Shown in pieces: positions 22,345-44,212 of a DNA stretch of 64,000 nt. Source of the stretch: Thermoplasmata archaeon (lineage in GTDB: Archaea > Thermoplasmatota > DTKX01 > JAHFTX01); assembly GCA_023265395.1 (NCBI GenBank), contig JAHFTX010000009.1:12308-76307 (forward strand), read 5' to 3'. The notes beneath the pieces were generated by a model. That model did not search any database. It had not been told where the DNA came from and saw only the letters and a list, made by a program, of their open reading frames with translations. The translations under genes were made by a program, and so were the position numbers. Position 1 is the stretch's first letter. Each line of letters starts with the position of its first letter.

Positions 22345-25300
22345 ATGGGCGGGAAGTCGAAACGTATATCGGCCGTCATCCCCAGCGGCCGCCGCCGGCT
22401 GGCCTCCGGTCCGGGTGAGACGTTGGTGAGCACGAACGGTCTCCTTGGGGCCCTGTTGGTGCTGCTTGCCCTGCTCCCGGTCCTGCCCGTGCCCGTTGGT
22501 GGCGTCGCCCCCATCGACGATGCACCCCATACCTGGTTGGGCAACGTCGGCATCTCGTTCCTGGGCGAGGGCGACAACGAGGAGAGTGGCCGTGGCGAGG
22601 CATTCCTTGGGGATGTCAATGGCGATGGCCGGGATGACTTCGCCATCACCAGCAACTTCGCCGACGAACCGGGGAATGGGGACGTGGGCAAGATCTACCT
22701 CTTCTTCGGACGGGTCCAGCCATGGGGAGCCAACCTGAGCCTCGCCAACTCTGACGCCTCATACTATGGCGAGGATCCTGACGACCGCGCCGGCCGTCGC
22801 GTGACTGGCCCCGGGGACCTCGACGGGGACGGGTTCGACGACTTCGTCGTCGCCGGGCCCGAGGTCGACTCCAATGGATCCAATTCAGGCGCCTGCTACC
22901 TCTTCTATGGTCGTAGCCAAGGGTGGATCCTCAACGGCCACCTCAACGCTGCCGACGCACGGATTATCGGCCAACCGGGGCATCGGTTCTGCAACGATGT
23001 CGCCGGGCCGGGTGACGTCAACGCCGATGGCTATCCCGATCTGTTGGTCGGGACCGACAGCACCGACCGCGCTTACCTGTTCTACGGCGGCCCGCAGCGC
23101 CTGTCGGGGACGGTCACGACCGCCAGCGCTGCTGCCACCTTCGTCGCCTCCAACGGTGACCGATTGGGCTGGGACGTCTCCTGGGTGGGCGACGTCAATG
23201 GCGACCAGATCGACGATCTGCTGATGGGGGCGCCCTATGCGGCCGATGGCGGCAACTGGGACGCCGGCAAGGCCTATCTGTACTTCGGCCGCCCCGAAGG
23301 CTGGAAGGCCTCGACCGGCGCTGGCGAGGCCGACGTCACCTTCCTCGGCCCCTCGGCGACGAGCCAGGCCGGCTACACGGTCGCTGGGCCTGGGGACGTC
23401 AACGGGGACGGGCTCGATGATGTGCTCGTGGGGGCGCCGAAGGATTCCCCCCTCGCCCTCGAGTCGGGGTCGGTCTACCTCTACCTGGGCAGACCCACGG
23501 CGGAGTGGCAACCGACACTCCCCGCCGCCCTCGCCGATACCAGCTTCATCGGGACTGCAGAGGACCACGAGCTTGGCGAGGCGATCCCCATCGGGAGCGA
23601 CGTCAACGGCGACGGCCTGAGCGACATGCTCCTGTGCGGCGCACCCAATGACACGCTCGACCAGCACGCCGGTGAGGCGTACCTCATCCTGGGCAGCCTC
23701 GTGGGTTGGACCTCGAACCAGCCGCCCCTTCCCGTCGCAGCGGCGAGCTACATCGGGGAGGCCTCCTACGATCGCGCATGCGACGAGGCCGGCGGCGGCG
23801 GGGACCTCGACGGCGATGGGCTCGATGACTTCCTCATCGGTGCACCCCAGAACGATCAGGCCGGCAACGGCATGGGCAAGGCGTACGGCCTGACACCCGC
23901 TCACAACGACCGGCCCAATGGGGTCCTTGGTGTGACCGTCTATGGTGATGTGGCACGGGAGCAGCCGATCGCCACCGCGGCGGTCGGCCAACGGGTCTTC
24001 GTGCAGGTCGATGGCCTCGACGCCTCACCGCTGAGCATCGACCGGTGCCAGGTCGAGATCCGATCGGATTCGCACCTGCGACACATCCGCATCGACCTGA
24101 CCGAGACGGCGCTCAACTCCGGTGCCTACGCTGGTGAGGTGCTGGTGACCAATCGCACCCATGAGCGCTTCGGCTGGATTGCGGCGGACCTGGGCGATAC
24201 GTTGACCCTCTCCTCGGTCGAGGCCCCGGCCAAGTCGATCGACCTGCCCATCCGCGGCATCGATCTGCCGGCGAACCTGACCGACCTGGTGGTGCTCGAA
24301 GATGCGACGCTCGACCTGCCCCTGGTCGCGGTCAACGGGACGGCGACTGGCTGGGACGTTCGCAGCGACGGAGGCTGGGTCACCTTCGACCCGTTGACCA
24401 TTCGCCTCCAAGGGACGCCCACCCACGCCGACGTGGGCTCCTACTGGCTGCAGGTCGAGACCGGCGATGCGTATGGCAACGTCGCCGAGCGCAACCTCAG
24501 CCTGCAGGTGCTCAACCGGCCCCCCCAGGTGCTCATCGCGCCCCCAAGCAGCGTCGACCAGGACGCAACCTACGCCGCCGACCTCGACAGCGACGATGAC
24601 CCTTACAGCGCGATCGTGTGGGCGCTCTCCCCTCCTGGCGCGTGGTTGAGCATCGACAACGACAGCGGGGCGCTCTTGGGCACCCCACGTGCCCCTGACG
24701 TCGGGCTCAACCACTTCAACGTCAGCATGGTCGACGACCTCGGCGGTGTGGGGTGGTTCAACCTCACCATCCTTGTCGGTGACCTCCCCGACGCACCGTC
24801 GGTGACGACGATGCAGCTGCCGCCAGCGTGGGAGGATTCGTTCTATGAGGTGACCCTCAACGGCAGCGACCCCGACATCGGCTCCCTCGCCCCCACCTGG
24901 CGCCTGCTGGATGCCCCAGCATGGCTCTCCCTCGATGGTACCCTTGGGCTCCTCCTCGGCACGCCGGAGAACGCCGACGTCGGCATCCGTACCATCACCA
25001 TCGAGGTCAGCGACGCTGAGGACCACCGGACCAACACCTCGTTTCCCCTGGAGGTACGCAACACCAACGATCCCCCGCTGGTGGTCAGCCAGCCACCGAC
25101 GGCCGCAGCGGTCGGCTCCCCCTTCCTCTATCAGGTGGAGGCGGTCGACGACGACATCGGTGAGGTGCTGCACTACGAGCTCGACACCTGGCCCTCGGGG
25201 ATGTCGATCGGGTCGACGACTGGCCTGTTGGAGTGGGTGCCCGCCGAGGGGCAGCGCGGGATGCAGCACGTGATCATCGCGATCGGGGATGGCAACGCCA

Positions 25301-27762
25301 CGGTGGTGCAGGACTTCTCCATCGTCGTCAACTCACCGCCGCGGTTCGAGAGCCTCCCACCGCCGATGGCCAAGGTCGGGGTCGACTATGTCTACCAACC
25401 GCTGGTGACCGATCCTGACGGCATCGCGGGTCTGCGCTACACCCTCATCCAAGCACCCGACGGGATGGCGGTCGCCACGACCACGGGACGGTTGGTGTGG
25501 ACCCCTCAGGGCCGCGACGTGGGATTGCACACGGTCAGCCTGCAGGTCGTCGACGCCTTCACGAGCGCTGAGCAACGCTTCGGCATCGAGGTGCTCTCGA
25601 GCAGTGCCTCCGATGCCCCCAGCGTCGAGCTGCTCGACCCCGTCGACGGCGTGGCGGTCTACACCACCCTCGTCCAGCTACGCTGGCACGCCACCGACCC
25701 CGACGGTGATCCGATCAGCGCCAGCGTCTTCCTCTCCAACGACAGCCTTGCGGTCGCGCTCCGAGAGCCCTCGACGCTGATCGGCAACGTCACGGGCCAG
25801 GTGTCGCAGCTGCGTGTCCCCACGCCCCTGGTGCCGGGGCAGCACTATTCGTGGGCGGTCAGTGTCTCCGATGGCCTCTGGCAGGTCCACGGCACCCAGA
25901 CCTTCGATTTCCTTGTCTCGCCGCGCGCGACGGTCAACGAGCCCCCGTTGGCAGTCGGTCCGGCGAACTGGGAGTTCGTCGTCGAGACCTCGGCCACCTT
26001 CTCCCTGCTGGCTTCCGACGTCGAAGGGGATACGTTGACCTTCTCCCTGCTCGAGGGCCCTGAAGGGGCGACGGTCAGCCGCAGTGGTGCCGTCAGCTGG
26101 ACCCCCGCGAAGAGCATGGTCGGCCAGCACCTCCTCCAATGGGTCGTCGACGACGGGTCCTCCCGCGCCGTCGGGGTCGTCCACCTGACGGTCCAGGCAT
26201 CCGGCATCGACGGAGGCAAGGACGACCACCGGGCAGGACCGGGGGTGCTCAGCGTCTTCACCAGCCCGCTTGGGCTCGCAGCCCTGGGTGTGCTCGGTGC
26301 GGTGGTGCTCCTGGCCCTGGTGGTCGCGCGCCGTCGCAAGGACCACAGCCCGACACCCGCGCCGCCGCCGGTTGACGAGGCCGCACCACCTTCCTCCGAT
26401 CTTGGACCACGGCTGGGGACCGAACCGGGGCCGACCCCAGCCCTCGCCAAGGGAGCCCGCGCTGCGGTCGATCCCTTCCACGTCGTCTCGGTGCTGCTGA
26501 TCCATGCCGATGGCCGGCTCATCACCCATCGGCAGGCTGCCGGAACGCCCGAAGGCGAGGAGGAGGAGGACGAGTTACCCGCAGACCTCGTCTCGGGCAT
26601 GCTCGTGGCGATCCAGACCTTCGTGCAAGAGAGCTTCAAGTCTGAAGCGGGGCTGCAGACCTTCGCCTTCGATCGGTTCAAGGTCGTGCTCCATGGCCAA
26701 GGTGAGGTGCTCGCGGCGGTGCTCGTCTCGGGCACGCCTCCGCCGCAGATGGCTGAGGAGCTCGAGCGCGTCGCCGTGGCCGTCAATGGCAACTATGGGG
26801 CGATGCTCGACCACTGGGATGGGGACCTCGAAGGTCTGCCGGGGATCGAGGGCCACCTCGAGCCGATCTTCGCCCTGGAGCGATCCCTGGTGCAGCGCAA
26901 GGTGGTCCGTCGGGTGCGCGTGCGCTCGGGGCTGGAGTTCTTCCAGGGGTACCTGCGGCTCAAGGTCGCCGTCGTCAACGATACGACCGTCCCGATCTCG
27001 GGCTGCGAACTCCTGCTCGACTTCGATCATGCCTACCTGCGACTCGACCACATCGAACCCGCCCTGGGGCGTTCGGGTGAAGCGGTCCTCGTGGGGACCG
27101 TCCCCGGCCGGGAGAAGCGCACGGTCGCCTATCTGCTCGACCCCGTCATCTGTCAGACCTCGACGCTGGGATGCACCCTCTCCTACGGCGACGTCGGGGG
27201 CACACGGCGGACCTTGGTGATGAAGCCAAAGCCCCTCGATGTCGTCTGCCCGATCTTCTACACCCCCAAGACGGTCAACCTCGCCATCCTGCGGCGCCTG
27301 CTGAGCCATGCCTCGGTGCGCGACCACCGTTCCTTCCGGCCGCCCTCGTCGATGACCCTCGACGCCCTCTACCAGCACATCCGTGACATCGTCGCAGGCT
27401 ATGACGTGCGGATGGTGCGCGAGCTTGCCGCGGAGGATGCACCGGTTCTTGCCTCCGACCAGCCGATGGGGAAGGTCGCGTGGTTCTATGGCAAGGTCCC
27501 GCAGGGCGGCGAGGAGATCGTCATCACGGTGGCAGTCAACGAGAGCGGTGGGACCGTCGAGCTGGGGGTCGCATGCCGCAACGTCGCCTCCTTGACGGGC
27601 CTGCTCGCCGACATCGCTCACCAAGTGGTCAAGTCCAAGCCCACGGTCCGTAGCACGCACCAACCGAACTCGGAGGACGTGGTCGCCCAGACCATGCACC
27701 TGCTCGAAGGCATCGACGAGGACCCGACGGCGCCCCAGGGGCCCATCGGTCCTGCTGATTGA
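22345..27762 (+). CDS. Integrin-alpha-like (FG-GAP repeats) plus cadherin-like/putative-Ig ectodomain, single TM, ~470-aa cytoplasmic module
   Basis: N-terminal hydrophobic LLGALLVLLALLPVLPV. At least seven FG-GAP/Ca-binding repeats (GDVNGDGRDDF, GDLDGDGFDDF, GDVNADGYPDL, GDVNGDQIDDL, GDVNGDGLDDV, SDVNGDGLSDM, GDLDGDGLDDF). Repeated dystroglycan-type units follow (GTPTHADVGSYWLQVE, GTPRAPDVGLNHFNVS, GTPENADVGIRTITIEV and others). TM LGLAALGVLGAVVLLALVVA lies at about nt 26266-26328, followed by RRRK and a long non-repetitive cytoplasmic region. Confidence 0.8.
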   Translation: MGGKSKRISAVIPSGRRRLASGPGETLVSTNGLLGALLVLLALLPVLPVPVGGVAPIDDAPHTWLGNVGISFLGEGDNEESGRGEAFLGDVNGDGRDDFAITSNFADEPGNGDVGKIYLFFGRVQPWGANLSLANSDASYYGEDPDDRAGRRVTGPGDLDGDGFDDFVVAGPEVDSNGSNSGACYLFYGRSQGWILNGHLNAADARIIGQPGHRFCNDVAGPGDVNADGYPDLLVGTDSTDRAYLFYGGPQRLSGTVTTASAAATFVASNGDRLGWDVSWVGDVNGDQIDDLLMGAPYAADGGNWDAGKAYLYFGRPEGWKASTGAGEADVTFLGPSATSQAGYTVAGPGDVNGDGLDDVLVGAPKDSPLALESGSVYLYLGRPTAEWQPTLPAALADTSFIGTAEDHELGEAIPIGSDVNGDGLSDMLLCGAPNDTLDQHAGEAYLILGSLVGWTSNQPPLPVAAASYIGEASYDRACDEAGGGGDLDGDGLDDFLIGAPQNDQAGNGMGKAYGLTPAHNDRPNGVLGVTVYGDVAREQPIATAAVGQRVFVQVDGLDASPLSIDRCQVEIRSDSHLRHIRIDLTETALNSGAYAGEVLVTNRTHERFGWIAADLGDTLTLSSVEAPAKSIDLPIRGIDLPANLTDLVVLEDATLDLPLVAVNGTATGWDVRSDGGWVTFDPLTIRLQGTPTHADVGSYWLQVETGDAYGNVAERNLSLQVLNRPPQVLIAPPSSVDQDATYAADLDSDDDPYSAIVWALSPPGAWLSIDNDSGALLGTPRAPDVGLNHFNVSMVDDLGGVGWFNLTILVGDLPDAPSVTTMQLPPAWEDSFYEVTLNGSDPDIGSLAPTWRLLDAPAWLSLDGTLGLLLGTPENADVGIRTITIEVSDAEDHRTNTSFPLEVRNTNDPPLVVSQPPTAAAVGSPFLYQVEAVDDDIGEVLHYELDTWPSGMSIGSTTGLLEWVPAEGQRGMQHVIIAIGDGNATVVQDFSIVVNSPPRFESLPPPMAKVGVDYVYQPLVTDPDGIAGLRYTLIQAPDGMAVATTTGRLVWTPQGRDVGLHTVSLQVVDAFTSAEQRFGIEVLSSSASDAPSVELLDPVDGVAVYTTLVQLRWHATDPDGDPISASVFLSNDSLAVALREPSTLIGNVTGQVSQLRVPTPLVPGQHYSWAVSVSDGLWQVHGTQTFDFLVSPRATVNEPPLAVGPANWEFVVETSATFSLLASDVEGDTLTFSLLEGPEGATVSRSGAVSWTPAKSMVGQHLLQWVVDDGSSRAVGVVHLTVQASGIDGGKDDHRAGPGVLSVFTSPLGLAALGVLGAVVLLALVVARRRKDHSPTPAPPPVDEAAPPSSDLGPRLGTEPGPTPALAKGARAAVDPFHVVSVLLIHADGRLITHRQAAGTPEGEEEEDELPADLVSGMLVAIQTFVQESFKSEAGLQTFAFDRFKVVLHGQGEVLAAVLVSGTPPPQMAEELERVAVAVNGNYGAMLDHWDGDLEGLPGIEGHLEPIFALERSLVQRKVVRRVRVRSGLEFFQGYLRLKVAVVNDTTVPISGCELLLDFDHAYLRLDHIEPALGRSGEAVLVGTVPGREKRTVAYLLDPVICQTSTLGCTLSYGDVGGTRRTLVMKPKPLDVVCPIFYTPKTVNLAILRRLLSHASVRDHRSFRPPSSMTLDALYQHIRDIVAGYDVRMVRELAAEDAPVLASDQPMGKVAWFYGKVPQGGEEIVITVAVNESGGTVELGVACRNVASLTGLLADIAHQVVKSKPTVRSTHQPNSEDVVAQTMHLLEGIDEDPTAPQGPIGPAD

Positions 27763-27803: not shown

Positions 27804-27829
27804 TATAGAAAATATAGAAACTGTTAAAA
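27804..27829 (+). promoter_or_regulatory. A/T-rich island: tandem TATAGAAA x2 followed by TGTTAAAA (probable TATA box of the 27853 gene)
   Basis: TATAGAAA lies at 27804-27811 and 27813-27820. TGTTAAAA at 27822-27829 is centred about 27 nt upstream of ATG 27853. It is the most A/T-rich stretch I saw in the window. Confidence 0.5.
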
Positions 27830-27852: not shown

Positions 27853-30800
27853 ATGACGCGTTCGTCCCCCTGCGCTCTCGTGGCGCTGCGCTCGGTGCCT
27901 GCGATGATGGTCGTGCTGCTGCTCCTGTTCCCCTCGGCAAGTTTGGCTGCCGCCCCCGAAGGCGACAGCGCTGAGGGAACGCTGCTTGGATCGGTCCGGC
28001 CGATCGCCACGGTCGAGAGCCTCCCCCTTGCGGCATCGTCGGTCACCGACGACCGCGGAGCGGCCATCTTGCGCGCGCCGTTGCCTGTCCTGGCAGCCTT
28101 GGAGGTCGAGCACCTCGAGTTGCAGGGGGGAACGCTCCCACAGGAGCGACTGGTGCACTCGGCGACCACTCAGGACGAACCTGCGCTCGAGGTCCATGTG
28201 GACGCACAAGGGACGCCGCTGGTCGGCATCAAGGGCAAGAAGGTGGGCGCCGCGGCGCTCCATCTCGAAGCGTCGACCTTCGCTCAGGCCACCGGGGGGA
28301 CCATCAGCGGTGAGCTCGAGGTCCCTGCGACCTTGCGCATCGACGCCGCGGTCGTGCAGGTGCTCCCCCCGCCGATAGACTCCCAGTGGGTCTATCCCGC
28401 AGCGCGTTGGCGCACGGACCTCACCCTCGTCTCCCCCGGGCCGCTCGCCGAGCAGCTGGTGGACCTGATCGTACCAATCGAGGAGGGCTGGGAAGTCCGA
28501 GAGGCGGGCTCAGGGCCGACCTCCCCTCCGCTGTCGCTGTGTGCAGGGATCGCCCTGACGTGGCATCCTGCCAGCGGCCCACAGCAGGAACTGCCCTTCG
28601 AGATGCTCGGCGTCGCGTCGACGCGCGAGGGCCGCTCGCTGCTGGTGCGAACGCTGTTGCCGCAGCGGAGCACGGATCACATCGAACTCTCCGTCTATCG
28701 GGGTAGCGTCCCGTTGCCGGGGATGCAGAGCGACTTCGGTGGCGGCGACTTCGTCCTGCGGCCCCGCATCGGGTTGGAGGCTTTTGCAGCGGCAGACACC
28801 TCCGCAGGAGTCGGCTCGGCGATCGGAGCGCCCCTGGACGTGGCGATCGCGCCTGACGGGTATGTGGCCGTGACGGATGCGGGGAGATCGCAAGTGCGGC
28901 TCTACGACTCCGAGCTGGTCCTTCGTCGAGTGATCGGCGCCGATGGTGGGAGCTCCTACCCGACCAGTTTCTCCAAGCCCCAGGGGATAGCCTTCGCCGC
29001 CAAGGGGGCGGCGATGGCCATCGCCGACACCGGCAATGGTCGGGTACAACTGATCGACCGCCAGGGCGAGCTGATCGGCATCCTCGATTCGACGGCGGGC
29101 CAGTCCGACGCGCTGAGTTTCCCAACCGACGTCACCATCGACGGGAACGGTCGCGTGCTGGCCTCCGACCCGCAGCGGGGAGCGGTGTTCCGGTTCGCTC
29201 CCACCTCCGGACCGGGGGAGCGGCTCCTCGAAGGGACCGACCTCGGCTGGCCCAGGGCGATCGCCGAACGCCAGGGGGACCTGTTCGTGCTCGACGAAGG
29301 TTCCGATTCGGTCTCGCGGTACGCTCTGGCAGGGGTCGGCGGCCCTGACCCCTTTGGCCCGCTGCACTTGGCCACGACGTTTGCGCTGGCTGTCGGTGAT
29401 GCGACCGCAGCACTCTCGAGCGGTGGGGAGGAGGGTGTGCTCTTGGCACAGCCTCAAGGCGGTGCCCCGCTGCGGCTGGACGCTCCGGTCTTGCGCCACC
29501 CCCGTGGCATGGCGTTCGATGACCTGGGGCGGCTGTGGGTCGCCGACAGCGGACGCGCGCAAGTGGTCCTCTTCCATCGGTTGACCATCTCCACCAGCCC
29601 GACGCTCGAGGAGCCCGTGCTCGAATCCGCCACGTTGCAGCTTGGGACGCTCGAGTTCCTCCTCTCCCCCTCTTCTACGGTGTCGAGCGAGGTCCCGATC
29701 CCTCCCACGGGGATCCTCCTGGATGCTGGGGCCCTCAGCTGGGAGTTGCGTTGGAGCGGCTCGACCTCCCCCGCCGGCATGAACCTGGTCGTGAGTGGCC
29801 CGTGGTTGCTGCCGCTAGGGAGTTGCACGGCGTGCGTCGATGTCGGAGTTGATGGGGAGAATGTCCTACAGATGAGCGTCGAGATCGACCCCGACCTGCC
29901 CCTCTCCCACCCACCCATCGCGCTGGCGATCGAGGGTCTTGCCTTGGGGGTCGTTGGGATCCACTGGCCAGCCGAGTTGCCTCTGCTGGCACAATCGCCG
30001 CTGCCCTGCGACTCACCCGTGAGAGTCCTGCGCCTGTTGCCACTGCCAAACCCGTGGCAGCCCAAGCAGACCCTCCCACTCGCTCTGACGATCGATGATG
30101 GGGGGAATAGCTCGAGCGCAGTTGTCGATGATCGGGGTATCCTCACCGTCGATTGCGATCCGACGGTGGGGATGACGCAACGTGCCCTGACTCTCCGACT
30201 GGTCCTCGCGCCGCTGCTGCCCACCGGTCCGCTCCCGGAGGCGGCCCTCCAGAGGTTGCTGTTGGGCTGGCCCACACCCGTGCCGCAGGTCTCGATCATC
30301 GCAGCCACCGAGGCAGAGGTCACTAGCCGTGGAGCACTGGTCGTACCGGCATCGGCGGTCGTCGAACCTGCCGAAGCCGCCGCCAACCTCCAATTGAGCC
30401 TCGAACCGAGCTTGCCCGACCTGGCGTGGGATGGCCAGAACGTCACCTGGCTCCATCCGCTGCCGGAGGTCGGGCAGCTCGAGCTCGTCGCCGTCGTAGG
30501 GGCGATCGAGGTCCGCCAGGCGTTACTGCTCCGCTGGGAGATCCCCCCATCCCGATGGGAGGCGACGGTAGAACCGATTGGTGAGGTCCAGGCCGGCAGT
30601 CAGCTCCGAGCCCGCATGCTCTTGCTCGAGGACGGGACCGTCGTCGATCGTCCGCTGCTGCTGCTCGATGGCCCAAAGGGGCTGCTGCTGCTCGAGGACG
30701 GGACCGTCCTCTGGAACATCCCTTGGGACGCTCCCCCTTTGGTGACGCTGACGGTCGACGCCGCGCTCGAGCAGCCCTTGCGGGCGACGATCGCCATCGA

Positions 30801-31719
30801 GCCGCTGCCGGTGCAGGTCGATCTGGCAGACGACCTCGCCAGCGGTCTGCTCCAAGGCGACATCCTAGGCTCGACGATCCACTGGAGCATCCCTCCGACG
30901 CTCATCAGCCAGGTCCCGCTGCCAGCGGTGCGGTTGCAGCTCGACGGGGGGGTATGGCGTTCTCCCGCGACCATGGGACAGTCTCACGGGCACGGGTCCG
31001 CGGTCGCTTCCGTCGGCACCGGCGCTCTCGAGCCAGGGTCGCATCGCGTCTTGTGGCGTGTCGACTTCGGCCCGCTGCGATTCGAACGGACCCACACCTT
31101 CGTGATCGGCACCGGTCCTGCGACGATCGAGCCCGTCGCCGCCTCTGTGACACTCCCGCTGACCTCGACGACGCTCGTCGTGGCGCTGAGCTTCGCCATC
31201 GCCCTGAGCGTGGCGGTGCGCTGGCGCGCCGCCCGCAAGGCCCCTTTCGTGGCCACCCCGTCGCCGACCGAGGCGCCGCCCCAGGCGCGGGACCCTCACC
31301 CCGGCGAGGGGGGCGACCTGCCCACCTCCGACGAGGAGGAAGGGCCATCGCCCGCCGTCGGGTCGGCGCCGCAGATGGTCACCTCGACGGTACCGACCGA
31401 ACCGATGCCGCTTCCCCCGCCGCCCCCGTGGTGGAAGGGTCCCCCGCTTCCGCACGTGACCGCCACCCAAGATGTACCGCTCCGCTGTGGGCTGTGCTTT
31501 GGGCTTTTCAAGCACGAGGTCGACCGCTGGGCGTGTCCCTGCGGGAGCCTGCTGCACCTGAGTTGCTCCCTGCGGGCAGGCCGCTGCCCCAGTTGCAAAC
31601 AGGCGCCACTGGGCCCACTCCCCACCAAGGGCGGCTCGGCGACGACCGGCCTGCCCTTCCTGCGGGCAAGCCCTCCCCCGCCGTTTGTTGCGGCCCCCTC
31701 GACGGAGGTGACGTCATGA
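27853..31719 (+). CDS. NHL-repeat beta-propeller surface protein, single TM, cytoplasmic Pro-rich linker and C4HC3 cross-brace-type zinc finger
   Basis: Signal peptide CALVALRSVPAMMVVLLLLFPSASLAAAPEG. NHL-like blades include LDVAIAPDGYVAVTDAGRSQVRLYD, PQGIAFAAKGAAMAIADTGNGRVQLID, PTDVTIDGNGRVLASDPQRGAVFRF and PRGMAFDDLGRLWVADSGRAQVVLF. TM TLVVALSFAIALSVAV lies at about nt 31147-31222. Then PLPPPPPWWKGPPLP, and C-x2-C-x12-C-x-C-x4-H-x2-C-x6-C-x2-C at nt 31486-31596. Confidence 0.8.
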   Translation: MTRSSPCALVALRSVPAMMVVLLLLFPSASLAAAPEGDSAEGTLLGSVRPIATVESLPLAASSVTDDRGAAILRAPLPVLAALEVEHLELQGGTLPQERLVHSATTQDEPALEVHVDAQGTPLVGIKGKKVGAAALHLEASTFAQATGGTISGELEVPATLRIDAAVVQVLPPPIDSQWVYPAARWRTDLTLVSPGPLAEQLVDLIVPIEEGWEVREAGSGPTSPPLSLCAGIALTWHPASGPQQELPFEMLGVASTREGRSLLVRTLLPQRSTDHIELSVYRGSVPLPGMQSDFGGGDFVLRPRIGLEAFAAADTSAGVGSAIGAPLDVAIAPDGYVAVTDAGRSQVRLYDSELVLRRVIGADGGSSYPTSFSKPQGIAFAAKGAAMAIADTGNGRVQLIDRQGELIGILDSTAGQSDALSFPTDVTIDGNGRVLASDPQRGAVFRFAPTSGPGERLLEGTDLGWPRAIAERQGDLFVLDEGSDSVSRYALAGVGGPDPFGPLHLATTFALAVGDATAALSSGGEEGVLLAQPQGGAPLRLDAPVLRHPRGMAFDDLGRLWVADSGRAQVVLFHRLTISTSPTLEEPVLESATLQLGTLEFLLSPSSTVSSEVPIPPTGILLDAGALSWELRWSGSTSPAGMNLVVSGPWLLPLGSCTACVDVGVDGENVLQMSVEIDPDLPLSHPPIALAIEGLALGVVGIHWPAELPLLAQSPLPCDSPVRVLRLLPLPNPWQPKQTLPLALTIDDGGNSSSAVVDDRGILTVDCDPTVGMTQRALTLRLVLAPLLPTGPLPEAALQRLLLGWPTPVPQVSIIAATEAEVTSRGALVVPASAVVEPAEAAANLQLSLEPSLPDLAWDGQNVTWLHPLPEVGQLELVAVVGAIEVRQALLLRWEIPPSRWEATVEPIGEVQAGSQLRARMLLLEDGTVVDRPLLLLDGPKGLLLLEDGTVLWNIPWDAPPLVTLTVDAALEQPLRATIAIEPLPVQVDLADDLASGLLQGDILGSTIHWSIPPTLISQVPLPAVRLQLDGGVWRSPATMGQSHGHGSAVASVGTGALEPGSHRVLWRVDFGPLRFERTHTFVIGTGPATIEPVAASVTLPLTSTTLVVALSFAIALSVAVRWRAARKAPFVATPSPTEAPPQARDPHPGEGGDLPTSDEEEGPSPAVGSAPQMVTSTVPTEPMPLPPPPPWWKGPPLPHVTATQDVPLRCGLCFGLFKHEVDRWACPCGSLLHLSCSLRAGRCPSCKQAPLGPLPTKGGSATTGLPFLRASPPPPFVAAPSTEVTS

Positions 31720-32051
31720 ATCCGCGCACGCCGCCAGCTGAAACCACAACTGATAAGTACCCTGCCCCAAGTCGCATCGCTGCGACCGACGGGGAGCGGA
31801 CCGGCGACATGGATGCCAAGGCAATCTTGATGGCCGTCGAGGAACGGCGCCGCTGGGAACAGCGCCGTACCGACCTGCTGGGCGAGCTGCGCGCGATGCC
31901 CTTCCGGGAGCGTCGCCGACGCACCGGTGACCTCCAGCGGATCGACCACATGCTCGCCTACTATGACGGGCTGGTGCGCGACATGAAGCGCAAGGTCCAA
32001 CGTGGGACCTCTGTCAACACGTTCCTTGACCGATTCGGAGCCTCCGAGTAG
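31716..32051 (+). CDS. Small (111 aa) predicted helical/coiled-coil protein, translationally coupled to the NHL/zinc-finger gene
   Basis: ATG 31716 overlaps stop TGA 31717-31719 (ATGA). It is the in-frame tail of track ORF 30723..32051, whose upstream part is a shadow of the NHL gene. The sequence is charged and heptad-like (AILMAVEERRRWEQRRTDLLGELRAM...LAYYDGLVRDMKRKVQ). An alternative start is ATG 31809 (MDAKAIL). Confidence 0.5.
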   Translation: MNPRTPPAETTTDKYPAPSRIAATDGERTGDMDAKAILMAVEERRRWEQRRTDLLGELRAMPFRERRRRTGDLQRIDHMLAYYDGLVRDMKRKVQRGTSVNTFLDRFGASE

Positions 32052-36775: not shown

Positions 36776-39700
36776 ATGGCTGACACCACCGCCGATGAAG
36801 AGGATTCCCCCCCCGCCGAGGAGGAGGGGCAAGGGGAGGTCCTCGACGGGGTTGGCGGCCAAGAGGACTCGGTGACCGAGGAGACGGATTCGCTCGCGGC
36901 CACCGACTCGTCGGACGAAGACCGGGACGAACCTCTCGATGACGAGGAGGAGGCTGAGGAGCCCACCGAACCGGGGGAGCCCGATGACGAGGAGGTGCCG
37001 CGGCCCACGAAAGCCAAGGCGACAAAGACCCGCTCCACGAGGACCACCTCCCGCTGGTGGGGCACCTCGACGCGCGGGGACGCTCCGTCGGACGAGAAGG
37101 CTCCACCAACCTGGGTGGGCCGTCTGGCCGTCCCGCTGCTGTTGCTGTCCTTCTTCTTGCTGGCGATGTTCATCCGTTCCTACTTCTACTGGCAGGTCGC
37201 CGTCCAACCCGTCGAGGACCTCGGCGTCAACTTCTTCTCCCTCTCTGGGAACGACCCCAACTACCACAAGCGGGTCATCGACTATGTCCAGCTCAACCAC
37301 CGGCAGCTGATCATCGACCCGCTGCTGAGCTACCCCAACGGCGCCGTCAACCCCAACCCGCCGCTGTTCGAGTGGAGCATCGTCCTGCTCGGCTACCTGC
37401 TGTCGCCCTTCCTTGGCAACGACGTTCAACTGGCCACGTGGTACGCCCACGAGTTCGGATCGGCGTTCTGGGCTTCAATGACGATCTTCCCCGTCTACGC
37501 CTACGCCAAGGACATGTTCGGGCGGCGACCCGCGATCCTCTCGGCGTTCTTCATCGCCGTCATGGCCGGCAACGTCGAGCGTACCCCTGTGGGCTTCTCC
37601 GACCACGATGCCTTCGTCGTGTTCTTCGTCGTCGTCGCCCTCTTCTTCCTGATGCGCGCCCTGCGCGGCCTACGGGAGGGCACCTACGTCGAGCGCTGGG
37701 GTGACTTCGCCAGCGTCACCCGCGGCGTCGACCGATTCTTGAAACACAACCGCAAGCCGCTGCTCAACGCCGTCATGTCGGGATTGGCGATCGCCACGGT
37801 CTTCCTGGCGTGGAAGGGCATCGCCTATCTCGAAGGGATCCTCCTCGTCTACCTGGTCTTCCATCTCCTGGTCAAGCGGGCACGCAAGGAGGAGAGCCTC
37901 GGGATCGGGGTGATCATCCTGACCACCCTGGCGGTGGCCCTGATCATCCCGATCCCCTACTACGCCTTCGCCCACCTGGCGGTGTGGTACGAGACCCCGC
38001 TGTTCATCTGGGCGTTCCTGGCGATCATCGTCCTGTTCCTCGTCCCCTCGCGCAACACCCCCTGGACCCTGTTGCTCGCCGAGATCGGTGGCACCGTCGC
38101 GTTGGTCTACGTCGTGGCCTCGCGGTTCTTCCCGCAGGTCTGGCAGACGCTGACGGAGCTGCAAGGGTACTTCTTGCGCACCAAGCTCTACACCACCATC
38201 GCCGAGGCCCAAGCGCCGGACTTCAGCCGACTAGTGTTCAGCTACGGCATCGCCACCTTCTTCTTGGCCCTCATCGGGCTCGTGCTCCTCGTGCTGCGGC
38301 TCCGCAAGGAGCGCTTCCGCAACGACCTGATCATCACGCTCATCTGGAGCGGGATGAGCTTCTACCTGGCGACCTCTGCCGTCCGGTTCGTCTACAACGG
38401 GACACCGGTGGTCGCGATCATGGCCGGGTGGGTCGCGTGGGAGGTCATCGAGCGCACCGGCTTCGACCGACTGAGCAAGTCGATGGCCATGACCACCGGT
38501 GCGTGGAACAAGCTGCGGCAGATCAACTTCTGGCACGTCTCGACGACCCTCTTCGTCGTGCTGATGTTGATCGTGCCCAACGTCTGGTACGGTGTCGACG
38601 CGGGCATCCCCTTCGAGACGAAGCAGAAGTACGACAAGGAGGTCTACGACGCCCTCCCCTCGTTCCTGCGCCCCGGCACCGACGTCTACGACCCCGACAC
38701 CGGCGGCTTGTGGTACCTTGGTGCCTTCGGCACCGCCTTCCCGAGCGACTATTGGCTCGATAGCCTGCATTGGTTGGCGCAGCAGGATACCGACCTGCCC
38801 ATCGAGGATCGGCCCGCGTTCGTCAGTTGGTGGGACTATGGTCACTGGTCCGTCCACTGGGGGGAACATCCCTCTGCCGCGGACAACTTCCAACACGGCT
38901 ACCAGTTCACCGGGCAGATGATCACAGCACCCAACGAATCGGTCTCCATCGCCCTGATGGCGGCGCGCATCGCCGAGGGCACCTACAAGAACAACCCGCA
39001 GGTCGAACCCTACCTGCGCGCCCAGCTGGGCGACGAGGTCACCAACGACCTGTTGGACCTCTACAAGAATCCCGGACCCTACGCCCAGGTCATCCTCGAT
39101 GACCCCGACACCTATGGCCGCTTCACGGAGAAGTACCAGGGCCCCGGCGGCACGACACTGCGCCATGACCTCGACCCCCTGAATGTCAAGTGGGCCTATG
39201 GGTCCCGCACCATCCTCAACGCCCTCGACGGCGATGAGGATCGCCTAGTGGACTTCCTGGCTGGTCTCGAGGGTATCACGGGCAAGCAGATGCGGTACTT
39301 CGCCGTCGACAGCCGCCTCTTCCCTTACTCGGCGTCCAACACCGGCATCTTCTACGCGCCGGTGCGCCTCTCCGACCAGGAGATCGACGACTTCCTGTTG
39401 ATTGAAGCGACGCTCAGCAACGGCCAGACGGTCAAGAGCTCCGAGATCAAGGGCGACCTCCAGCAACAGATCCAGCGGGGCGAGGTGAGCATCAACAGCT
39501 TCTCCTTGACCTACGAGCCACCCTTCCTCGACTCGCTCTTCTATCGCGCCTACGTCGGCTACAGCGGGGCGGACATCGGCCGCACCGACCCGACCTGCCT
39601 GCCGGCGATGCGGGTCTCCCAGGTGAAGGGTGGTCAGAACGCCTGCACCCAGCTGCTCCCCCTGCAAGGATGGGGACTTGAGCACTGGAAACTGGTCTAT

Positions 39701-42700
39701 CGCAGCCAGTACTGGAACCCCAACGCCACGGACCTGAGCAACCACACCGACGAATGGAGGATCGTCTCCCCGGAGTTGGCGGCGGAGCTGTCGGGCCAGC
39801 AGGACCCCGAGCTGGCCGGTACCTTGGACACGACCCTGCGCGGCCTGCTCAGTGGGGTGTTCTACCTACGGTACTATCCTGGGGTCGTCGCCGAGGGTGC
39901 CGTCACCGCCAGCGACGGCAGCCCCGTGGCCAACGCCCGGGTGACGGTCTTCGACGACCTCAAGGCACTCGACCCTTCGCTCCCGGGGGTTCCTCACCAG
40001 AGCGTGCGCACCGATGCCCAGGGACACTACCGGATCATCCTGCCTCCTGGGGAGGTGTTGCTGCGCGTCACCAACGGTGGCGACGGGGACACCAACGCTG
40101 CCGAGCAGAACCGCATCCTGATGCAGGACTACCGCCTGCTCGCCGAGCAGCGGCTGACCATCCTGCCCGACCAGGCCGAGCGGTCGGTCGGCGACCTCAA
40201 CGGCGACGGCCAACCCGACTGGAAGCTGCGCCAGGACTTCGTCATCCCCCTGGCATCGGTCGAGGGCAACGTCTACTGGGATGTCGACGGTGATGGGAGC
40301 CTCGACGCCGGGACGGATCTGCCCATCAGTGGCTCGATCCGCCTGAGCAGCGTCGCGGGGGACTCGACGCTCCTTGCGCAAATCGGCACGGACGGGACCT
40401 ACCGCCTGACCGACGTCATCCCTGGCGATTACCAGATGGTCCTCCTCCACGAAGGCACCGACTTCACCTTCGAGCAATTGAAGGTCGACCCCTCGGACCA
40501 TCTGACCGAGGACCGGGGCGTCACGCCTGCCGGGCTCAACGGGACGCTCGCGGTGATCGAGGGGTCCAACACCAGCCTCGCTGGGGCGCAACTCGTGTTG
40601 CGTGCCGCCGACGGGCACTCGGTCGCCCGGACCCGCACCAACGCCACGGGCGCCTACGTCATGACCCGGCTGCTGCCCGGGACCTTCAACCTCACGCTCG
40701 AGGAGCAGCGGTTCTTCCCTGCGCGCGAACCCGTCAGCCTCATCGACGGGGCCAACAGCTCGGTCAACCTCACCATCCGCCCTACCTCGACGGTCATCGG
40801 CGTGGTGCAGCTGCCCGATGGCAGCCCAGCCGCCAATGCTACACTGCTGTTTGCGCACCGGACCAATCAGAGCCTGACCCTGACGGCGACCGCAGGAGCG
40901 GGGGGCTCGTACCGGGCCTATCTCGCGGCGGGGTCCTACGCCCTGACCGTGCAGTATGCGCGCGGGGGGCTCCCCTATGGGATGCTGCAGGACCTCGAGG
41001 TCGTGGGCGAAGGCACCGTCGTCGAGTTGCCCGTGCAGCTGGCGCGCGCAACCGCCTTCAGCGGACGCACCTTCATCGACACCAACGGCAACAACAGCTA
41101 CGACCTTCTGCGCCTCAAGGTGGTCTCGGGCCCGGGCGGTCCGGGCAACGTCGGCGGTGGCGGCCTAGGGGACATAGCGACCAAACCGATCGAGGGTGTC
41201 CTGCCGGGTGTGGGCAGGCCCGAGGAGGCGGGCCACCGCTCCGTGACCGTCTTCGGCCCCTTGGGCCTGCAGACCGTGCGCACCGACGCTGCGGGTCACC
41301 TGTCGCTGCTGCTCCCCAGCGGCGACTATACGATACTGGCCAACTCCAAGGAGCAACCCAGTGGAGCGGCCCAGACGAAGCTGCGACAGCTCAGCGTCGG
41401 TCTGACCCCCCAGCCGTCGGCGACCTTGGACCTGCAGTTGAGCAACGGCACGATCTTCGACGGCGTATTGTTCGAGGACCGCAACGACGACGGCCTGACC
41501 GACCCCGGCGAGCACCTGCGATCGGGCACCGTCAGCCTGACGCCATCCCGGGGAACTCCCTTCTCCTTCCCCATCGACATCAACGGGACCTTCAACTGGT
41601 CCCTGCCCGCCGGGACCTACCACCTACGGGCAGCTGCCACTGGTTACGTGCCCGCAGACACCGACGTCGTGCTCAGTGGCACCCACCTGACCAAACCGGT
41701 GGCGTTGGTACGCAGCCAGGTCCCCGTGGAGCTGCATGTGGGCACCGATGAAGACGGCGACGGGATCGTCGATGCGGGGGTGGCACTCCCGCTCCAGCTC
41801 CGCGGCGCTGGCACCTCCCAGGAGGTCAGCTCCGACCTCACGGGCAAACTCTCCCTCGACCTGCTGCCCGGGAGCTACTCCATCTCCGTCGACACCAACC
41901 GGACCGAGGAGGGCTCGACGGTCCGCTACAAGGGGGCGACGACCCTCAACCTGACCCTCGGGGATGGACCCACCATCGCGGAGTTCCCGCTCCAGCAGCT
42001 GCTCCACCTGCAGGGGACGCTCTACCGTGACTCCGACCATGACGGCGCCATCGACCAGAGCGAGCGGCGCAATGGTCGGGTGGAAGCGTATGCCGCTGGC
42101 GGTCACGAGGCGGGCACCGCCCGGGCCGACAGCGATGGCCGCTTCGAACTCTACCTGCCGCAGGGCGCCTACAGCCTCCACGCCCGCGAGAGCGACCTGC
42201 TCAGCCCCAGCGGGGTGAGCGTCGCCTTGCTGTCCGTCGACCTCGACGGTCCGACGGCGGTCATACTGAAGCTCGAGACGGCCGTCCGGCTGTTCGGTCA
42301 CACCTACTCCGACGGCAATGGCGATGGGATCCGGCGGATCTCCGAAGACCGGCCAGAGGTCCCGATCCTCCTCCGGGTCGACGGCCAGGGATGGTTCCCC
42401 GCCACCAGCAACGATGCCGCCGAGTTCGAGGTGTTCGTCCCGGCCACCAGTACGTTGCATCTGTTGGTCGACAGCCCCGACACTGATACCGATGGCACAC
42501 CCACGGGCGTGCGCCTCGTCGCGGACCTGCCGCTGAGCATCGACACCGAGGACCGGCAGGTCGACGTGGCGATCGAGGAGTTCGTCGACCTCTCCGGAAC
42601 CCTCAGCTTCGACAGCGACGGTGATGGCAAGGTCGACGCCGGAGAGGAACTCGCGAACGTGACGCTCTCCTTCCCCACCGATGCGGGCGTCATCACGGCC

Positions 42701-44212
42701 CGTACCGATGCGGCAGGCCGGTATGCGGTGGCGGTGCCCGCGGGGACCTACCATCCGACGATCGACGCCCCTGGGTATGACACCAACCTCTCGAGCCTCA
42801 ACGTCGCCGCCGGGACTCCGGCGCACAACCTGACCGCGCTGGCGACCCACCTGCAGGTGAGCGGGACAATCTTCGGCGACAGCAACGGCAACGGCAAGCT
42901 CGACGGCTCCGAGGCCGGACTGGCACTCTCGATCACGCTCCATGGCGCCGGTGAGAGCATCGTCAACCTCACCTCCGACTCCTTTGGCAACATCGCTGGC
43001 GAGGCCAAGGCGGGGAACTACACGCTGTGGGTCGGCAGCGGCAGCGGTCCGGCCACACTGGCCTTGGCCACCACCATCACCATCGCCCCAGGTCGCGGTG
43101 GAGCCGACCTGCTGCTCCCACTGGCACCGACGCTCAAGCTCAAGGTGACGCCGCAGCTCCACGACGAGTCGGGGGCGGAGCGATCCTTGGCGGGGGTCAA
43201 CATCACCGTGACGGCCGCTCTCGGGCAGGAGCAGGTGGTCCCCGCCACGACGGTGCAGGAGCTGTTCCTCCCCGCCGGCAACTACAGCCTGCACGGCAGC
43301 ACGGCCATCGTCGAGTTCGGCAGGCCAGCGACCTACACCCTCGACCAGCAGGTCGTCCTCGACCATCCCCAGGCCCTGTCGGTGCCCTTCGAGAAGGAGC
43401 TGGCCCTCTACGCGCGCGTCGAAGCCGTCGCCCCCCAACTGAGTGGTCTGCAAGCCAACGACAGCATCAACGTCACGTTGCACGTCACCAACGTCGGCAA
43501 CAGCCCCGAGACCTTCCGCCTGCGCACCACCAGCGTCCCCGCGGAGTGGAAGGTCGCCTTCGACCCGCAGGAGGTCACCCTCGGGCTCGACCAGATGGCC
43601 ACGGTCGTCGCCACGGTCAACGTCAGCGCCAAGCCCAACGGCGGCGAGAACTCCCTGCGCTTCAATGCCACCCCCAAGAGGGACGGCACCCAGGGCGGTG
43701 ACCTGCGCCTGACGGCGTCCGTCGACCTGGTCTCATCGGTCCAGCTCAGCCCCGCGGCCAATGCGGTGACGATCCGCGAGGGAGCGTTCGTCTTCACCTT
43801 CACCGTCGCCAACGATGGCAACCACCAGGAAGGGGTCAACCTCACCATCGCCAGCCTCCCCCAGGGCTGGCTGGGGACGCTCGACAACTACAACCCCTCG
43901 GTCCCGCCGGGCAAGACGGCCGACGTCCAGGTGACGGTGCGAGTCCCTGCTGGTGCCGCCCCCGGCGCCAAGACCTTCATCGACATCGCGGCCCGCGCCG
44001 AAGGCGGTGGCAGCGACCGTCTCTCCCTGCCCGTCGACTTCCCCGACCTCGTCGTGGGCAAGGGCGCGATCAAGGTCGAAGGGGCGAAGGTCTCGTTGAA
44101 GAAGTCCACCAGCAGCGGCAGATGGCTGCCCATCCCCAGCTTCGAGGCACCGCTTGCCGTGCTGGCGCTTGGGGTCGTGCTGGTCCTGCATCACCGCCGC
44201 AGGGAGGGCTGA
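36776..44212 (+). CDS. aglB: Oligosaccharyltransferase AglB/STT3 fused to a ~1450-aa extracellular array of beta-sandwich repeats with a second C-terminal TM
   Basis: An acidic ~100-aa N-terminal tail precedes about 13 TM helices. The WWDYG catalytic motif lies at nt 38828-38842 (FVSWWDYGHW). From about nt 39870 there are many CarboxypepD_reg/prealbumin-like units (GAVTASDGSPVANARVTVFD...TDAQGHYRI). NEW3/CARDB-like units follow (LHVTNVGNSPETFRLRTTSVPAEWKV). The C-terminus is PSFEAPLAVLALGVVLVLHHRRREG. Confidence 0.88.
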   Translation: MADTTADEEDSPPAEEEGQGEVLDGVGGQEDSVTEETDSLAATDSSDEDRDEPLDDEEEAEEPTEPGEPDDEEVPRPTKAKATKTRSTRTTSRWWGTSTRGDAPSDEKAPPTWVGRLAVPLLLLSFFLLAMFIRSYFYWQVAVQPVEDLGVNFFSLSGNDPNYHKRVIDYVQLNHRQLIIDPLLSYPNGAVNPNPPLFEWSIVLLGYLLSPFLGNDVQLATWYAHEFGSAFWASMTIFPVYAYAKDMFGRRPAILSAFFIAVMAGNVERTPVGFSDHDAFVVFFVVVALFFLMRALRGLREGTYVERWGDFASVTRGVDRFLKHNRKPLLNAVMSGLAIATVFLAWKGIAYLEGILLVYLVFHLLVKRARKEESLGIGVIILTTLAVALIIPIPYYAFAHLAVWYETPLFIWAFLAIIVLFLVPSRNTPWTLLLAEIGGTVALVYVVASRFFPQVWQTLTELQGYFLRTKLYTTIAEAQAPDFSRLVFSYGIATFFLALIGLVLLVLRLRKERFRNDLIITLIWSGMSFYLATSAVRFVYNGTPVVAIMAGWVAWEVIERTGFDRLSKSMAMTTGAWNKLRQINFWHVSTTLFVVLMLIVPNVWYGVDAGIPFETKQKYDKEVYDALPSFLRPGTDVYDPDTGGLWYLGAFGTAFPSDYWLDSLHWLAQQDTDLPIEDRPAFVSWWDYGHWSVHWGEHPSAADNFQHGYQFTGQMITAPNESVSIALMAARIAEGTYKNNPQVEPYLRAQLGDEVTNDLLDLYKNPGPYAQVILDDPDTYGRFTEKYQGPGGTTLRHDLDPLNVKWAYGSRTILNALDGDEDRLVDFLAGLEGITGKQMRYFAVDSRLFPYSASNTGIFYAPVRLSDQEIDDFLLIEATLSNGQTVKSSEIKGDLQQQIQRGEVSINSFSLTYEPPFLDSLFYRAYVGYSGADIGRTDPTCLPAMRVSQVKGGQNACTQLLPLQGWGLEHWKLVYRSQYWNPNATDLSNHTDEWRIVSPELAAELSGQQDPELAGTLDTTLRGLLSGVFYLRYYPGVVAEGAVTASDGSPVANARVTVFDDLKALDPSLPGVPHQSVRTDAQGHYRIILPPGEVLLRVTNGGDGDTNAAEQNRILMQDYRLLAEQRLTILPDQAERSVGDLNGDGQPDWKLRQDFVIPLASVEGNVYWDVDGDGSLDAGTDLPISGSIRLSSVAGDSTLLAQIGTDGTYRLTDVIPGDYQMVLLHEGTDFTFEQLKVDPSDHLTEDRGVTPAGLNGTLAVIEGSNTSLAGAQLVLRAADGHSVARTRTNATGAYVMTRLLPGTFNLTLEEQRFFPAREPVSLIDGANSSVNLTIRPTSTVIGVVQLPDGSPAANATLLFAHRTNQSLTLTATAGAGGSYRAYLAAGSYALTVQYARGGLPYGMLQDLEVVGEGTVVELPVQLARATAFSGRTFIDTNGNNSYDLLRLKVVSGPGGPGNVGGGGLGDIATKPIEGVLPGVGRPEEAGHRSVTVFGPLGLQTVRTDAAGHLSLLLPSGDYTILANSKEQPSGAAQTKLRQLSVGLTPQPSATLDLQLSNGTIFDGVLFEDRNDDGLTDPGEHLRSGTVSLTPSRGTPFSFPIDINGTFNWSLPAGTYHLRAAATGYVPADTDVVLSGTHLTKPVALVRSQVPVELHVGTDEDGDGIVDAGVALPLQLRGAGTSQEVSSDLTGKLSLDLLPGSYSISVDTNRTEEGSTVRYKGATTLNLTLGDGPTIAEFPLQQLLHLQGTLYRDSDHDGAIDQSERRNGRVEAYAAGGHEAGTARADSDGRFELYLPQGAYSLHARESDLLSPSGVSVALLSVDLDGPTAVILKLETAVRLFGHTYSDGNGDGIRRISEDRPEVPILLRVDGQGWFPATSNDAAEFEVFVPATSTLHLLVDSPDTDTDGTPTGVRLVADLPLSIDTEDRQVDVAIEEFVDLSGTLSFDSDGDGKVDAGEELANVTLSFPTDAGVITARTDAAGRYAVAVPAGTYHPTIDAPGYDTNLSSLNVAAGTPAHNLTALATHLQVSGTIFGDSNGNGKLDGSEAGLALSITLHGAGESIVNLTSDSFGNIAGEAKAGNYTLWVGSGSGPATLALATTITIAPGRGGADLLLPLAPTLKLKVTPQLHDESGAERSLAGVNITVTAALGQEQVVPATTVQELFLPAGNYSLHGSTAIVEFGRPATYTLDQQVVLDHPQALSVPFEKELALYARVEAVAPQLSGLQANDSINVTLHVTNVGNSPETFRLRTTSVPAEWKVAFDPQEVTLGLDQMATVVATVNVSAKPNGGENSLRFNATPKRDGTQGGDLRLTASVDLVSSVQLSPAANAVTIREGAFVFTFTVANDGNHQEGVNLTIASLPQGWLGTLDNYNPSVPPGKTADVQVTVRVPAGAAPGAKTFIDIAARAEGGGSDRLSLPVDFPDLVVGKGAIKVEGAKVSLKKSTSSGRWLPIPSFEAPLAVLALGVVLVLHHRRREG

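Follow-up and report, generated by a model that had tools for sequence, protein, structure and literature searches.

A C4HC3 RING-superfamily zinc finger on the predicted cytoplasmic tail of a single-pass archaeal surface protein

The 64-kb stretch of the Thermoplasmata archaeon contig JAHFTX010000009.1 analyzed here (the window, in which coordinates count from the first letter) encodes a 1288-aa surface protein whose C-terminal tail carries a compact C4HC3 zinc finger at 31486–31596, the subject of this report. RING fingers are the signature ubiquitin ligase (E3) module of eukaryotic ubiquitin signaling and are regarded as sporadic in prokaryotes. The window has a GC content of 67.6% and is archaeal in its gene content, with Pfam matches to CDP-archaeol synthase, Orc1/Cdc6, an archaeal-type PheRS beta subunit, ThrRS with the archaeal editing domain, aRF1, and an AglB/STT3 fusion. 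The gene and the features of its product are as follows.

27804–27829, forward strand: AT-rich island TATAGAAAATATAGAAACTGTTAAAA, 24–49 nt 5' of the start codon, read from the sequence and likely the archaeal TATA/BRE-type promoter of the gene
27853–31719, forward strand: gene of the single-pass surface protein, 1288 aa, stop codon included (open reading frame list; GC content at third codon positions, GC3, 0.82)
27853–27954, forward strand: probable N-terminal signal peptide or signal anchor, aa 1–34, MTRSS...LLLLFPSASLAAA (hydropathy peak at aa 8–26, then an A-x-A-like site)
28831–29568, forward strand: extracellular NHL-repeat beta-propeller region, about aa 327–572 (Pfam NHL, E 1.6e-13, best stretch 547–572)
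31162–31239, forward strand: one predicted transmembrane helix, aa 1104–1122, then the basic stop-transfer stretch RWRAARK, aa 1123–1129 (Kyte-Doolittle peak 2.01)
31240–31485, forward strand: cytoplasmic Pro/acid-rich linker, probably disordered, that includes PLPPPPPWWKGPPLP (read from the sequence; AlphaFold2 (AF2) predicted local distance difference test score (pLDDT) below 50 outside the finger)
31486–31596, forward strand: C4HC3 RING-superfamily zinc finger, aa 1212–1248, CGLCFGLFKHEVDRWACPCGSLLHLSCSLRAGRCPSC (motif, homologues, profile, and model)
31597–31716, forward strand: C-terminal 40-aa Pro-rich extension, KQAPLGPLPTKG... (read from the sequence)

This layout agrees with the description given in the earlier note, which had placed the finger on the cytoplasmic tail of an NHL-propeller membrane protein. 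Beyond the Pfam match, the propeller assignment draws on SGL and TEN_NHL hints at aa 329–451, an NCBIfam ScyE/ScyF NHL match at aa 327–447, and 79 homologues that share the NHL region alone. Approximately 500 aa of ectodomain between the NHL repeats and the membrane helix carry no family assignment. A cytoplasmic location of the tail beyond the helix is supported by the positive-inside rule, because basic residues follow the transmembrane helix both in this protein and across the family of proteins that share its finger. The same note had also pointed to the polyproline stretch PLPPPPPWWKGPPLP (aa 1186–1200, 31408–31452) as an SH3/WW-ligand-like element. The stretch is indeed present ahead of the finger, but it is conserved neither in the nearest relative (locus L001) nor in the family tails, so that its reading as a specific SH3/WW ligand was rejected; it belongs to a variable Pro/acid-rich linker. 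On the other side of the finger, the first ~12 residues of the C-terminal extension are partly kept in L001 (P47, G49, L51, P52, G55), and the remainder is modeled with low AF2 confidence.

The eight ligands, in frame and with exactly the spacing first reported, follow C1212-x2-C-x12-C-x-C-x4-H-x2-C-x6-C-x2-C. The arrangement falls within the eight-ligand spacing of the RING superfamily, C-x2-C-x(9-39)-C-x(1-3)-[CH]-x(2-7)-[CH]-x2-C-x(4-48)-C-x2-C, with four residues (x4) separating ligands 4 and 5, as in PHD/C4HC3 fingers. Of the 13 Cys residues in the protein, seven lie within 37 residues; among 20,000 shuffles none reached seven, and the maximum of six was seen a single time. Across the six frames of the window, a loosely defined binuclear pattern turns up only here, and 30 shuffled windows yield none. 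Chance origin of the Cys cluster is excluded by these counts. A broader version of the same doubt would put the finger down to chance clustering, to an extracellular segment held by disulfides, or to spurious non-coding sequence in a high-GC frame. High-GC genomes do yield many long spurious open reading frames, and several overlap the RING-tailed gene in other frames. Against this, GC3 is 0.81–0.83 in the tail and finger, compared with 0.82 for the whole gene, as expected of a coding frame, homologues are kept in frame in at least 30 proteins, and the segment follows a transmembrane helix and basic residues that would place it in the cytoplasm. This explanation is effectively refuted. The identical protein is also found in NCBI on an 82.9-kb contig (P0083), and two further proteins of equal length (P0001 and P0082) differ by 3–4 substitutions, none of them in the finger.

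Relatives of the finger were sought with a 60-aa finger query (E ≤ 1e-3) in an exhaustive phmmer/HMMER comparison against 1.84 billion representatives. It returned 35 phmmer matches, 30 of which contain the same finger with all eight ligands; the other five (P0084, P0087, P0088, P0096, and P0117) are repeat or low-complexity artefacts that lack it. Loss of the ligands in homologues, which by the earlier note would have refuted the cross-brace reading, is thus not seen in the roughly 30 genuine matches. The family consensus reads CxIC[FL]GxIKxGLxxxxCxCGxx[YF]HxxCAxRxGxCPxC. An alignment of 51 finger copies extracted by regular expression (A2) displays a non-ligand signature as well: I or V two residues after C1 (46/51), G (40/51), K (39/51), G after C4 (47/51), R three residues after C6 (39/51), G (33/51), and P after C7 (43/51). 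The window finger retains the G, K, G, R, G, and P of this signature. Its nearest relative, P0089/L001, is 45–50% identical; this is a C-terminal gene fragment on a contig of GC 0.67, the same as the window. The full-length protein recovers only its own 90% cluster (P0083, P0001, and P0082) and proteins that match the NHL region alone, and a scan of the genome collection with the tail of the window protein itself gave no relative. A metagenome scan with this tail and L001 as queries produced only false positives (L014 3862–4815 and L015 3909–4862), a 318-aa protein with a SEC-C-like motif, DRWSCPCGSKKRLGDCC, that is unrelated to the finger family.

Profile comparisons place the finger closest to RING domains. 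Prok-RING_1 (PF14446) is the best Pfam family for the window finger and for 50 of the 51 fingers (best E 2e-8), and family members bear faint flags for it in precomputed annotation; zf-RING_2 matches 49/51 (2.1e-7) and PHD 20/51 (best 0.0018). When the family profile is compared with the PDB, RING-H2 E3 structures align over its full length, led by RNF24 (8.9e-8), RNF4 (3.1e-7), and Arkadia (1.3e-6) and including RNF165, RNF126, and RLIM; RNF13 (3.6e-4) and ZNRF3 (7.9e-4) also match. In these alignments, seven of the eight ligands occupy canonical RING columns (C1, C2, the second Cys of C-x-C, the His, C6, C7, and C8). Where RINGs have His as ligand 4, the family has Lys or Ser; the missing ligand is supplied by an invariant Cys that precedes ligand 3 by two residues.

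Structure prediction gives a congruent picture. AF2 with the family alignment produces a beta-beta-alpha model at pLDDT 90.1, in which the C-x-C lies in a hairpin turn and the H-x2-C at the start of the helix; the single-sequence prediction of the 104-aa tail reaches pLDDT 50. A Foldseek comparison of the model with the PDB returns RING or U-box domains for all of the best 50 matches, with probability up to 1.0, TMq of 0.5–0.69, and rmsd mostly of 2–3.5 Å. The alignment to RING-H2 structures and the secondary structure of the model together suggest that C1212, C1215, H1235, and C1238 would form zinc site 1 and C1228, C1230, C1245, and C1248 zinc site 2. By motif, profile, and predicted fold, membership of the finger in the RING superfamily is supported; it would then be a binuclear cross-brace treble clef. 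The cross-brace (RING/PHD-like) reading of the earlier note is thereby narrowed in the direction of RING.

Several observations weigh against this assignment. The window protein falls under every Pfam cut-off; its Prok-RING_1 score rises from 11.3 bits for the whole protein to 16.0 for the 115-aa tail and 19.1 for the 49-aa finger, compared with a gathering threshold of 29.1, and whole family proteins, at 19.6–28.6 bits, also stay below that threshold. Across the Pfam families that match the 51 fingers, nearly all scores lie under the respective gathering thresholds. Against the PDB the window finger alone is marginal (Slx1 RING 0.035, Arkadia 0.056). The Foldseek E-values are weak (0.03–0.2) for a domain of only 49 residues, and AF2 may have reproduced RING geometry from the alignment alone. 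Furthermore, the ligand invariance within the family is partly built in, as both the regular-expression extraction and the Cys-rich 60-mer query favor sequences that keep their Cys residues.

Two other zinc-binding folds merit consideration in light of these data. The ligands could form two sequential mononuclear sites, as in zinc ribbons or knuckles, with a RING likeness that stems from Cys spacing only. Short Cys-rich profiles attract one another in hidden Markov model (HMM) searches, giant surface proteins in related loci do bear DZR/zinc-ribbon tails, and P0092 and P0097 have a plain CxxC...CxxC ribbon after the membrane helix. Yet no DZR or zinc-ribbon family ranks near the top of the Pfam matches (DZR is outside the first 25), the modeled geometry is that of a treble clef, with ligands 5 and 6 on the helix and the C-x-C in its hairpin turn, and, within the limits of a prediction, every top fold match is a RING or U-box; non-ligand residues align with RING-H2 domains as well. 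The sequential arrangement is very unlikely.

In the second alternative, the finger would be a PHD-, C1-, or FYVE-like reader. Its ligand at the inner membrane face would be a peptide tail, an acidic lipid head-group, or nucleic acid, and not a folded protein. The ligand order is that of PHD and RING-CH (RINGv/MARCH) fingers, and the C4-x4-H-x2-C spacing that of PHD. PHD, PHD_NSD, and C1_1 give weak matches in 20–26 of the 51 fingers, Pygopus PHD fingers are matched in the PDB at E 3e-4, and the conserved K and R (39/51 each) could contact anions. PHD fingers have 12–46 residues in the last loop and RING-CH fingers 11–25, with x7 before the His in the latter; the last loop here has six. PHD alignments cover profile positions 4–34 and stop at ligand 6, before the last knuckle, whereas RING alignments cover positions 2–48; the PHD E-values are ~4–5 orders of magnitude worse than those for RING, and none of the top 50 fold matches is a PHD, RING-CH, or C1 structure. 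RING thus fits these sequences better than PHD does, and a reader of this kind appears quite improbable.

The compact spacing from C1 to C7 is shared with Prok-RING_1, in which aa 1211–1245 of the window protein align to profile positions 6–41; the Pfam alignment ends at C7 and leaves the final C-P-x-C knuckle unmatched. Prokaryotic RINGs with C4HC3 ligands were reportedly described by Burroughs, Iyer, and Aravind in 2011 (Mol BioSyst 7:2261). No account of RING-tailed surface proteins in Thermoplasmatota or Poseidoniales was found in the literature searched, although that 2011 paper may show a similar membrane architecture. The C4HC3 order is typical of prokaryotic RINGs and recurs in the window finger; in prokaryotic RINGs, however, the final pair of ligands is separated by a longer insert (PMC11354881), compared with the canonical x2 here. 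NCBIfam has no model for the finger. With the family below current Pfam cut-offs as well, its genes are likely annotated by ectodomain or as hypothetical proteins, and alignment A2 could serve as a usable seed for a new domain model.

The finger family consists of "receptor with RING tail" proteins, apparently of marine Thermoplasmatota. The nine loci found in species-representative genomes belong to Thermoplasmatota archaeon ETNP2_MAG_1 (three loci) or to metagenome-assembled genomes labeled "uncultured archaeon". Most full-length members share a common layout of signal peptide, large ectodomain, one transmembrane helix, RRKK-type basic residues, an acidic/Pro-rich linker, and one to four fingers, as seen in P0085, P0090–93, P0097, P0099, P0109, P0111, and the nine genome loci. 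The linkers, 40–340 aa in length, are comparable in type but non-homologous, and the ectodomains are mutually unrelated (LamG with DUF2341, FG-GAP, PKD, NosD beta-helix, Big_5, fn3, Ig, cohesin, and CBM96). Genomes carry several RING-tail paralogues, some of them in tandem, which indicates local duplication and ectodomain diversification. Genes adjacent to one another occur at L007 (926–5560 and 5792–10321) and at L016 (3321–9914 and 10001–15073). A coherent multi-copy family thus emerges in which a compact C4HC3 RING would form the cytoplasmic end of very large single-pass surface proteins with many different ectodomains.

This diversity also bears on the resemblance to eukaryotic TRIM-NHL proteins (TRIM71/LIN-41, TRIM2/3, and Brat), which likewise combine a RING-type finger and NHL repeats in one polypeptide; some of the NHL homologues bear the automatic name "tripartite motif-containing protein 71". 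TRIM-NHL proteins run from an N-terminal RING through a B-box and a coiled coil to a C-terminal NHL region, all in the cytosol. In the window protein the order is reversed, with an extracellular NHL region, a cytoplasmic RING, and a membrane helix between them, and Pfam detects neither a B-box nor a coiled coil in it. Because the fingers homologous to this one stand behind LamG, FG-GAP, PKD, NosD, Ig, and cohesin ectodomains in place of NHL, the pairing of RING and NHL is best read as an accident of domain shuffling, not as a TRIM relationship, in keeping with the caution that the earlier note had voiced about common ancestry.

The central functional question is whether the finger acts as a ubiquitin-type ligase, the E3-like half of the "protein-protein or E3-like signalling" first proposed for it. 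If so, the protein would be a true transmembrane RING E3 whose finger recruits either a ubiquitin-conjugating enzyme charged with a ubiquitin-like protein (E2~Ubl) or a SAMP/Urm1-type modifier. Engagement of the ectodomain would then lead to the marking of proteins in the cytoplasm or of the receptor. In the PDB, the family profile best matches RINGs of active E3s, including the membrane-anchored RNF24, RNF13, and ZNRF3. Similarities to the small RING finger protein (srfp) of Caldiarchaeum subterraneum, the one archaeal RING E3 that has been reconstituted biochemically (Hennell James et al. 2017, PMC5654768), point in the same direction. srfp is an archaeal RING with a predicted cross-brace in which ligands 3 and 4 are shifted by two residues and an extra Cys is proposed for the second zinc (PMC5654768), reminiscent of the C-x-C here. 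Its I30, essential for activity, corresponds to L1214 of the window finger and to the conserved hydrophobic residue between C1 and C2 of the family; srfp also needs W58 for efficient chain building and the R69 linchpin for full activity (PMC5654768).

With regard to these contacts the family departs from an E3. Profile alignments put a four-residue deletion, within the six-residue last loop, exactly where RING-H2 domains bear the E2-binding Trp of the helix; of the expected E2-contact and activation residues, the hydrophobic residue and the Pro after C7 are conserved. The linchpin position after C8 is unconserved, being Gly, Asn, Glu, or Asp in most members (Gly in 24/51) and Lys in 2/51. Whereas srfp is small, soluble, and of RING-H2 type, and shares its operon with ubiquitin, E1, E2, and Rpn11 (PMC5654768), the window finger is the tail of a 1288-aa membrane protein, and no such operon is seen in the window or six other neighborhoods. 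By Pfam, no ubiquitin-activating enzyme (E1), E2, Ubl, or JAB gene is found among the ~40 open reading frames of the window or in neighborhoods L002, L003/4, L016, L017, and L018/19, a search confined to these neighborhoods. All seven neighborhoods (the window and the six others) hold only housekeeping genes or further surface proteins, among the former the archaeal NAC, CGI-121, Cbf5, PheRS alpha, and geranylgeranyl reductase genes. A tblastn search of 300 kb with UBE2D2, UBE2N, and ubiquitin likewise gave no match, a weak test. In Euryarchaeota, SAMP conjugation proceeds without need for E2 or E3 (PMC11354881). A ubiquitin-type ligase function of the finger is unsupported by these comparisons: the E3-like half of the proposal has gained no positive evidence, and the neighborhoods, the Trp, and the linchpin speak to some degree against it. 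We consider a transmembrane RING E3 unlikely.

A more specific form of this proposal concerns architecture. Eukaryotic PA-TM-RING proteins such as RNF13/GRAIL, along with ZNRF3/RNF43 and RNF24, similarly combine a signal peptide, a ligand-binding ectodomain, one transmembrane helix, and a cytosolic RING, and, were the window protein an E3, these transmembrane RING-H2 enzymes would by analogy be the best model for its working. They differ in having C3H2C3 ligands, a 10-residue last loop with the E2-binding Trp, one RING per protein, and known E2s, compared with C4HC3 ligands, a six-residue last loop, up to four fingers per tail, and other ectodomains in the archaeal family. Independent assembly of the shared architecture is more likely than descent from a common origin. 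That the RING-tailed giant surface proteins are receptor-coupled E3 ligases, the archaeal counterpart of PA-TM-RING and ZNRF3/RNF43, with an unrecognized E2 or a SAMP/Urm1-type modifier, is unlikely. If true, it would reveal receptor-linked ubiquitin-like signaling in Euryarchaeota-grade archaea, outside the Asgard and Aigarchaeota known for eukaryote-like E1/E2/RING cascades, and any E3 activity would extend ubiquitin-like ligation among archaea beyond its known range.

The finger is instead probably a zinc-stabilized cytoplasmic docking or oligomerization module on a receptor- or adhesin-like surface protein, and not an E2-dependent ligase. This preference is based on the ubiquitin-free neighborhoods, the deleted Trp, the unconserved linchpin, and the occurrence of tandem fingers beside other interaction modules; a catalytic E3 with as many as four RINGs in tandem would be unusual. 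Within the cytoplasmic part of this type-I surface protein, the finger would be the sole folded module, with two zinc ions held in interleaved fashion by predicted sites 1 and 2. It may anchor the surface protein, gather it into clusters, or bring a cytoplasmic partner to it, and what the NHL propeller binds outside would thereby be linked to the cell interior. Some features weigh on the other side. The hydrophobic residue between C1 and C2 is kept (I/V in 46/51), as is the Pro after C7 (43/51), and the window finger has a Lys (K1249) directly after C8, at the linchpin position. The finger may therefore still bind an E2. A docking role is moreover inferred by exclusion.

More generally, the most economical reading has these archaea combine exchangeable ectodomains with exchangeable cytoplasmic modules in their receptor- or adhesin-like proteins. 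The RING finger would be one such module, beside the zinc ribbons, SHOCT-like helices, globular domain, DZR, and winged helix that also occur in tails. An adaptor of this type would provide a handle on how these archaea connect surface proteins to the cell interior and would illustrate a pre-ubiquitin, protein-binding role of the RING.

Modules other than RING recur in the tails of the finger family and of related proteins. A plain zinc ribbon, a SHOCT-like helix, and a globular domain all occur in family tails. The ribbons of P0092 and P0097 directly follow the transmembrane helix, and the conserved SHOCT-like terminal helix LLMQLKKQLVNRE[IL][ST]IDE[FY] ends P0092, P0093, P0094, and P0116. 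Other giant surface proteins on related Thermoplasmatota contigs (L003 2094–8081 and L002 20119–23301; NosD/Big_5 and CarboxypepD_reg types) have DZR/zinc-ribbon domains instead of RING, and zinc-binding tails thus seem to be a general theme.

Directly upstream of the RING-tailed gene, 22345–27762 (forward strand) encodes an 1805-aa FG-GAP/He_PIG/Big_9 surface protein with a transmembrane segment near aa 1301–1330 and a 475-aa cytoplasmic tail. Residues 1359–1510 of this tail match, at 30% identity (E 2e-12), the globular domain of P0085 (L002 14699–15157 / L010 9251–9709), where it separates the transmembrane helix from the three RING fingers. The domain has no firm family assignment, the sole Pfam hint being a faint match to Fuz_longin_1 (E 0.28). 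On the downstream side, a 111-aa open reading frame at 31716–32051 (forward strand) begins with an ATG that overlaps the stop codon of the RING-tailed gene (ATGA) and exactly spans the gap up to the convergent pheT. Its product is charged and helical-looking, with GC3 of 0.77 and no Pfam match; it was discarded as a conserved downstream partner gene, as it has no counterpart beside L001 or the other loci.

Elsewhere in the window, 4762–8226 (forward strand) encodes a protein of 1154 aa in which a hydrophobic N-terminal signal and a Big_3_5 ectodomain are combined with a hydrophobic helix near aa 979–997 and a cytoplasmic HVO_0163-type helix-turn-helix plus MarR-type winged helix. By its domain content it looks like a membrane-tethered transcription factor, which would add to the window another surface protein whose cytoplasmic part bears an output domain. 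The 2478-aa product of 36776–44212 (forward strand) joins an AglB/STT3 oligosaccharyltransferase core to ~1700 aa of CarboxypepD_reg and NPCBM-associated repeats and a C-terminal membrane anchor. Two PurP-type (DUF1246/DUF1297) paralogues are encoded on the reverse strand at 8236–9456 and 51203–52366, and the window also contains two large S8 subtilases and a beta-oxidation cluster of thiolase, 3-hydroxyacyl-CoA dehydrogenase, and acyl-CoA dehydrogenase.

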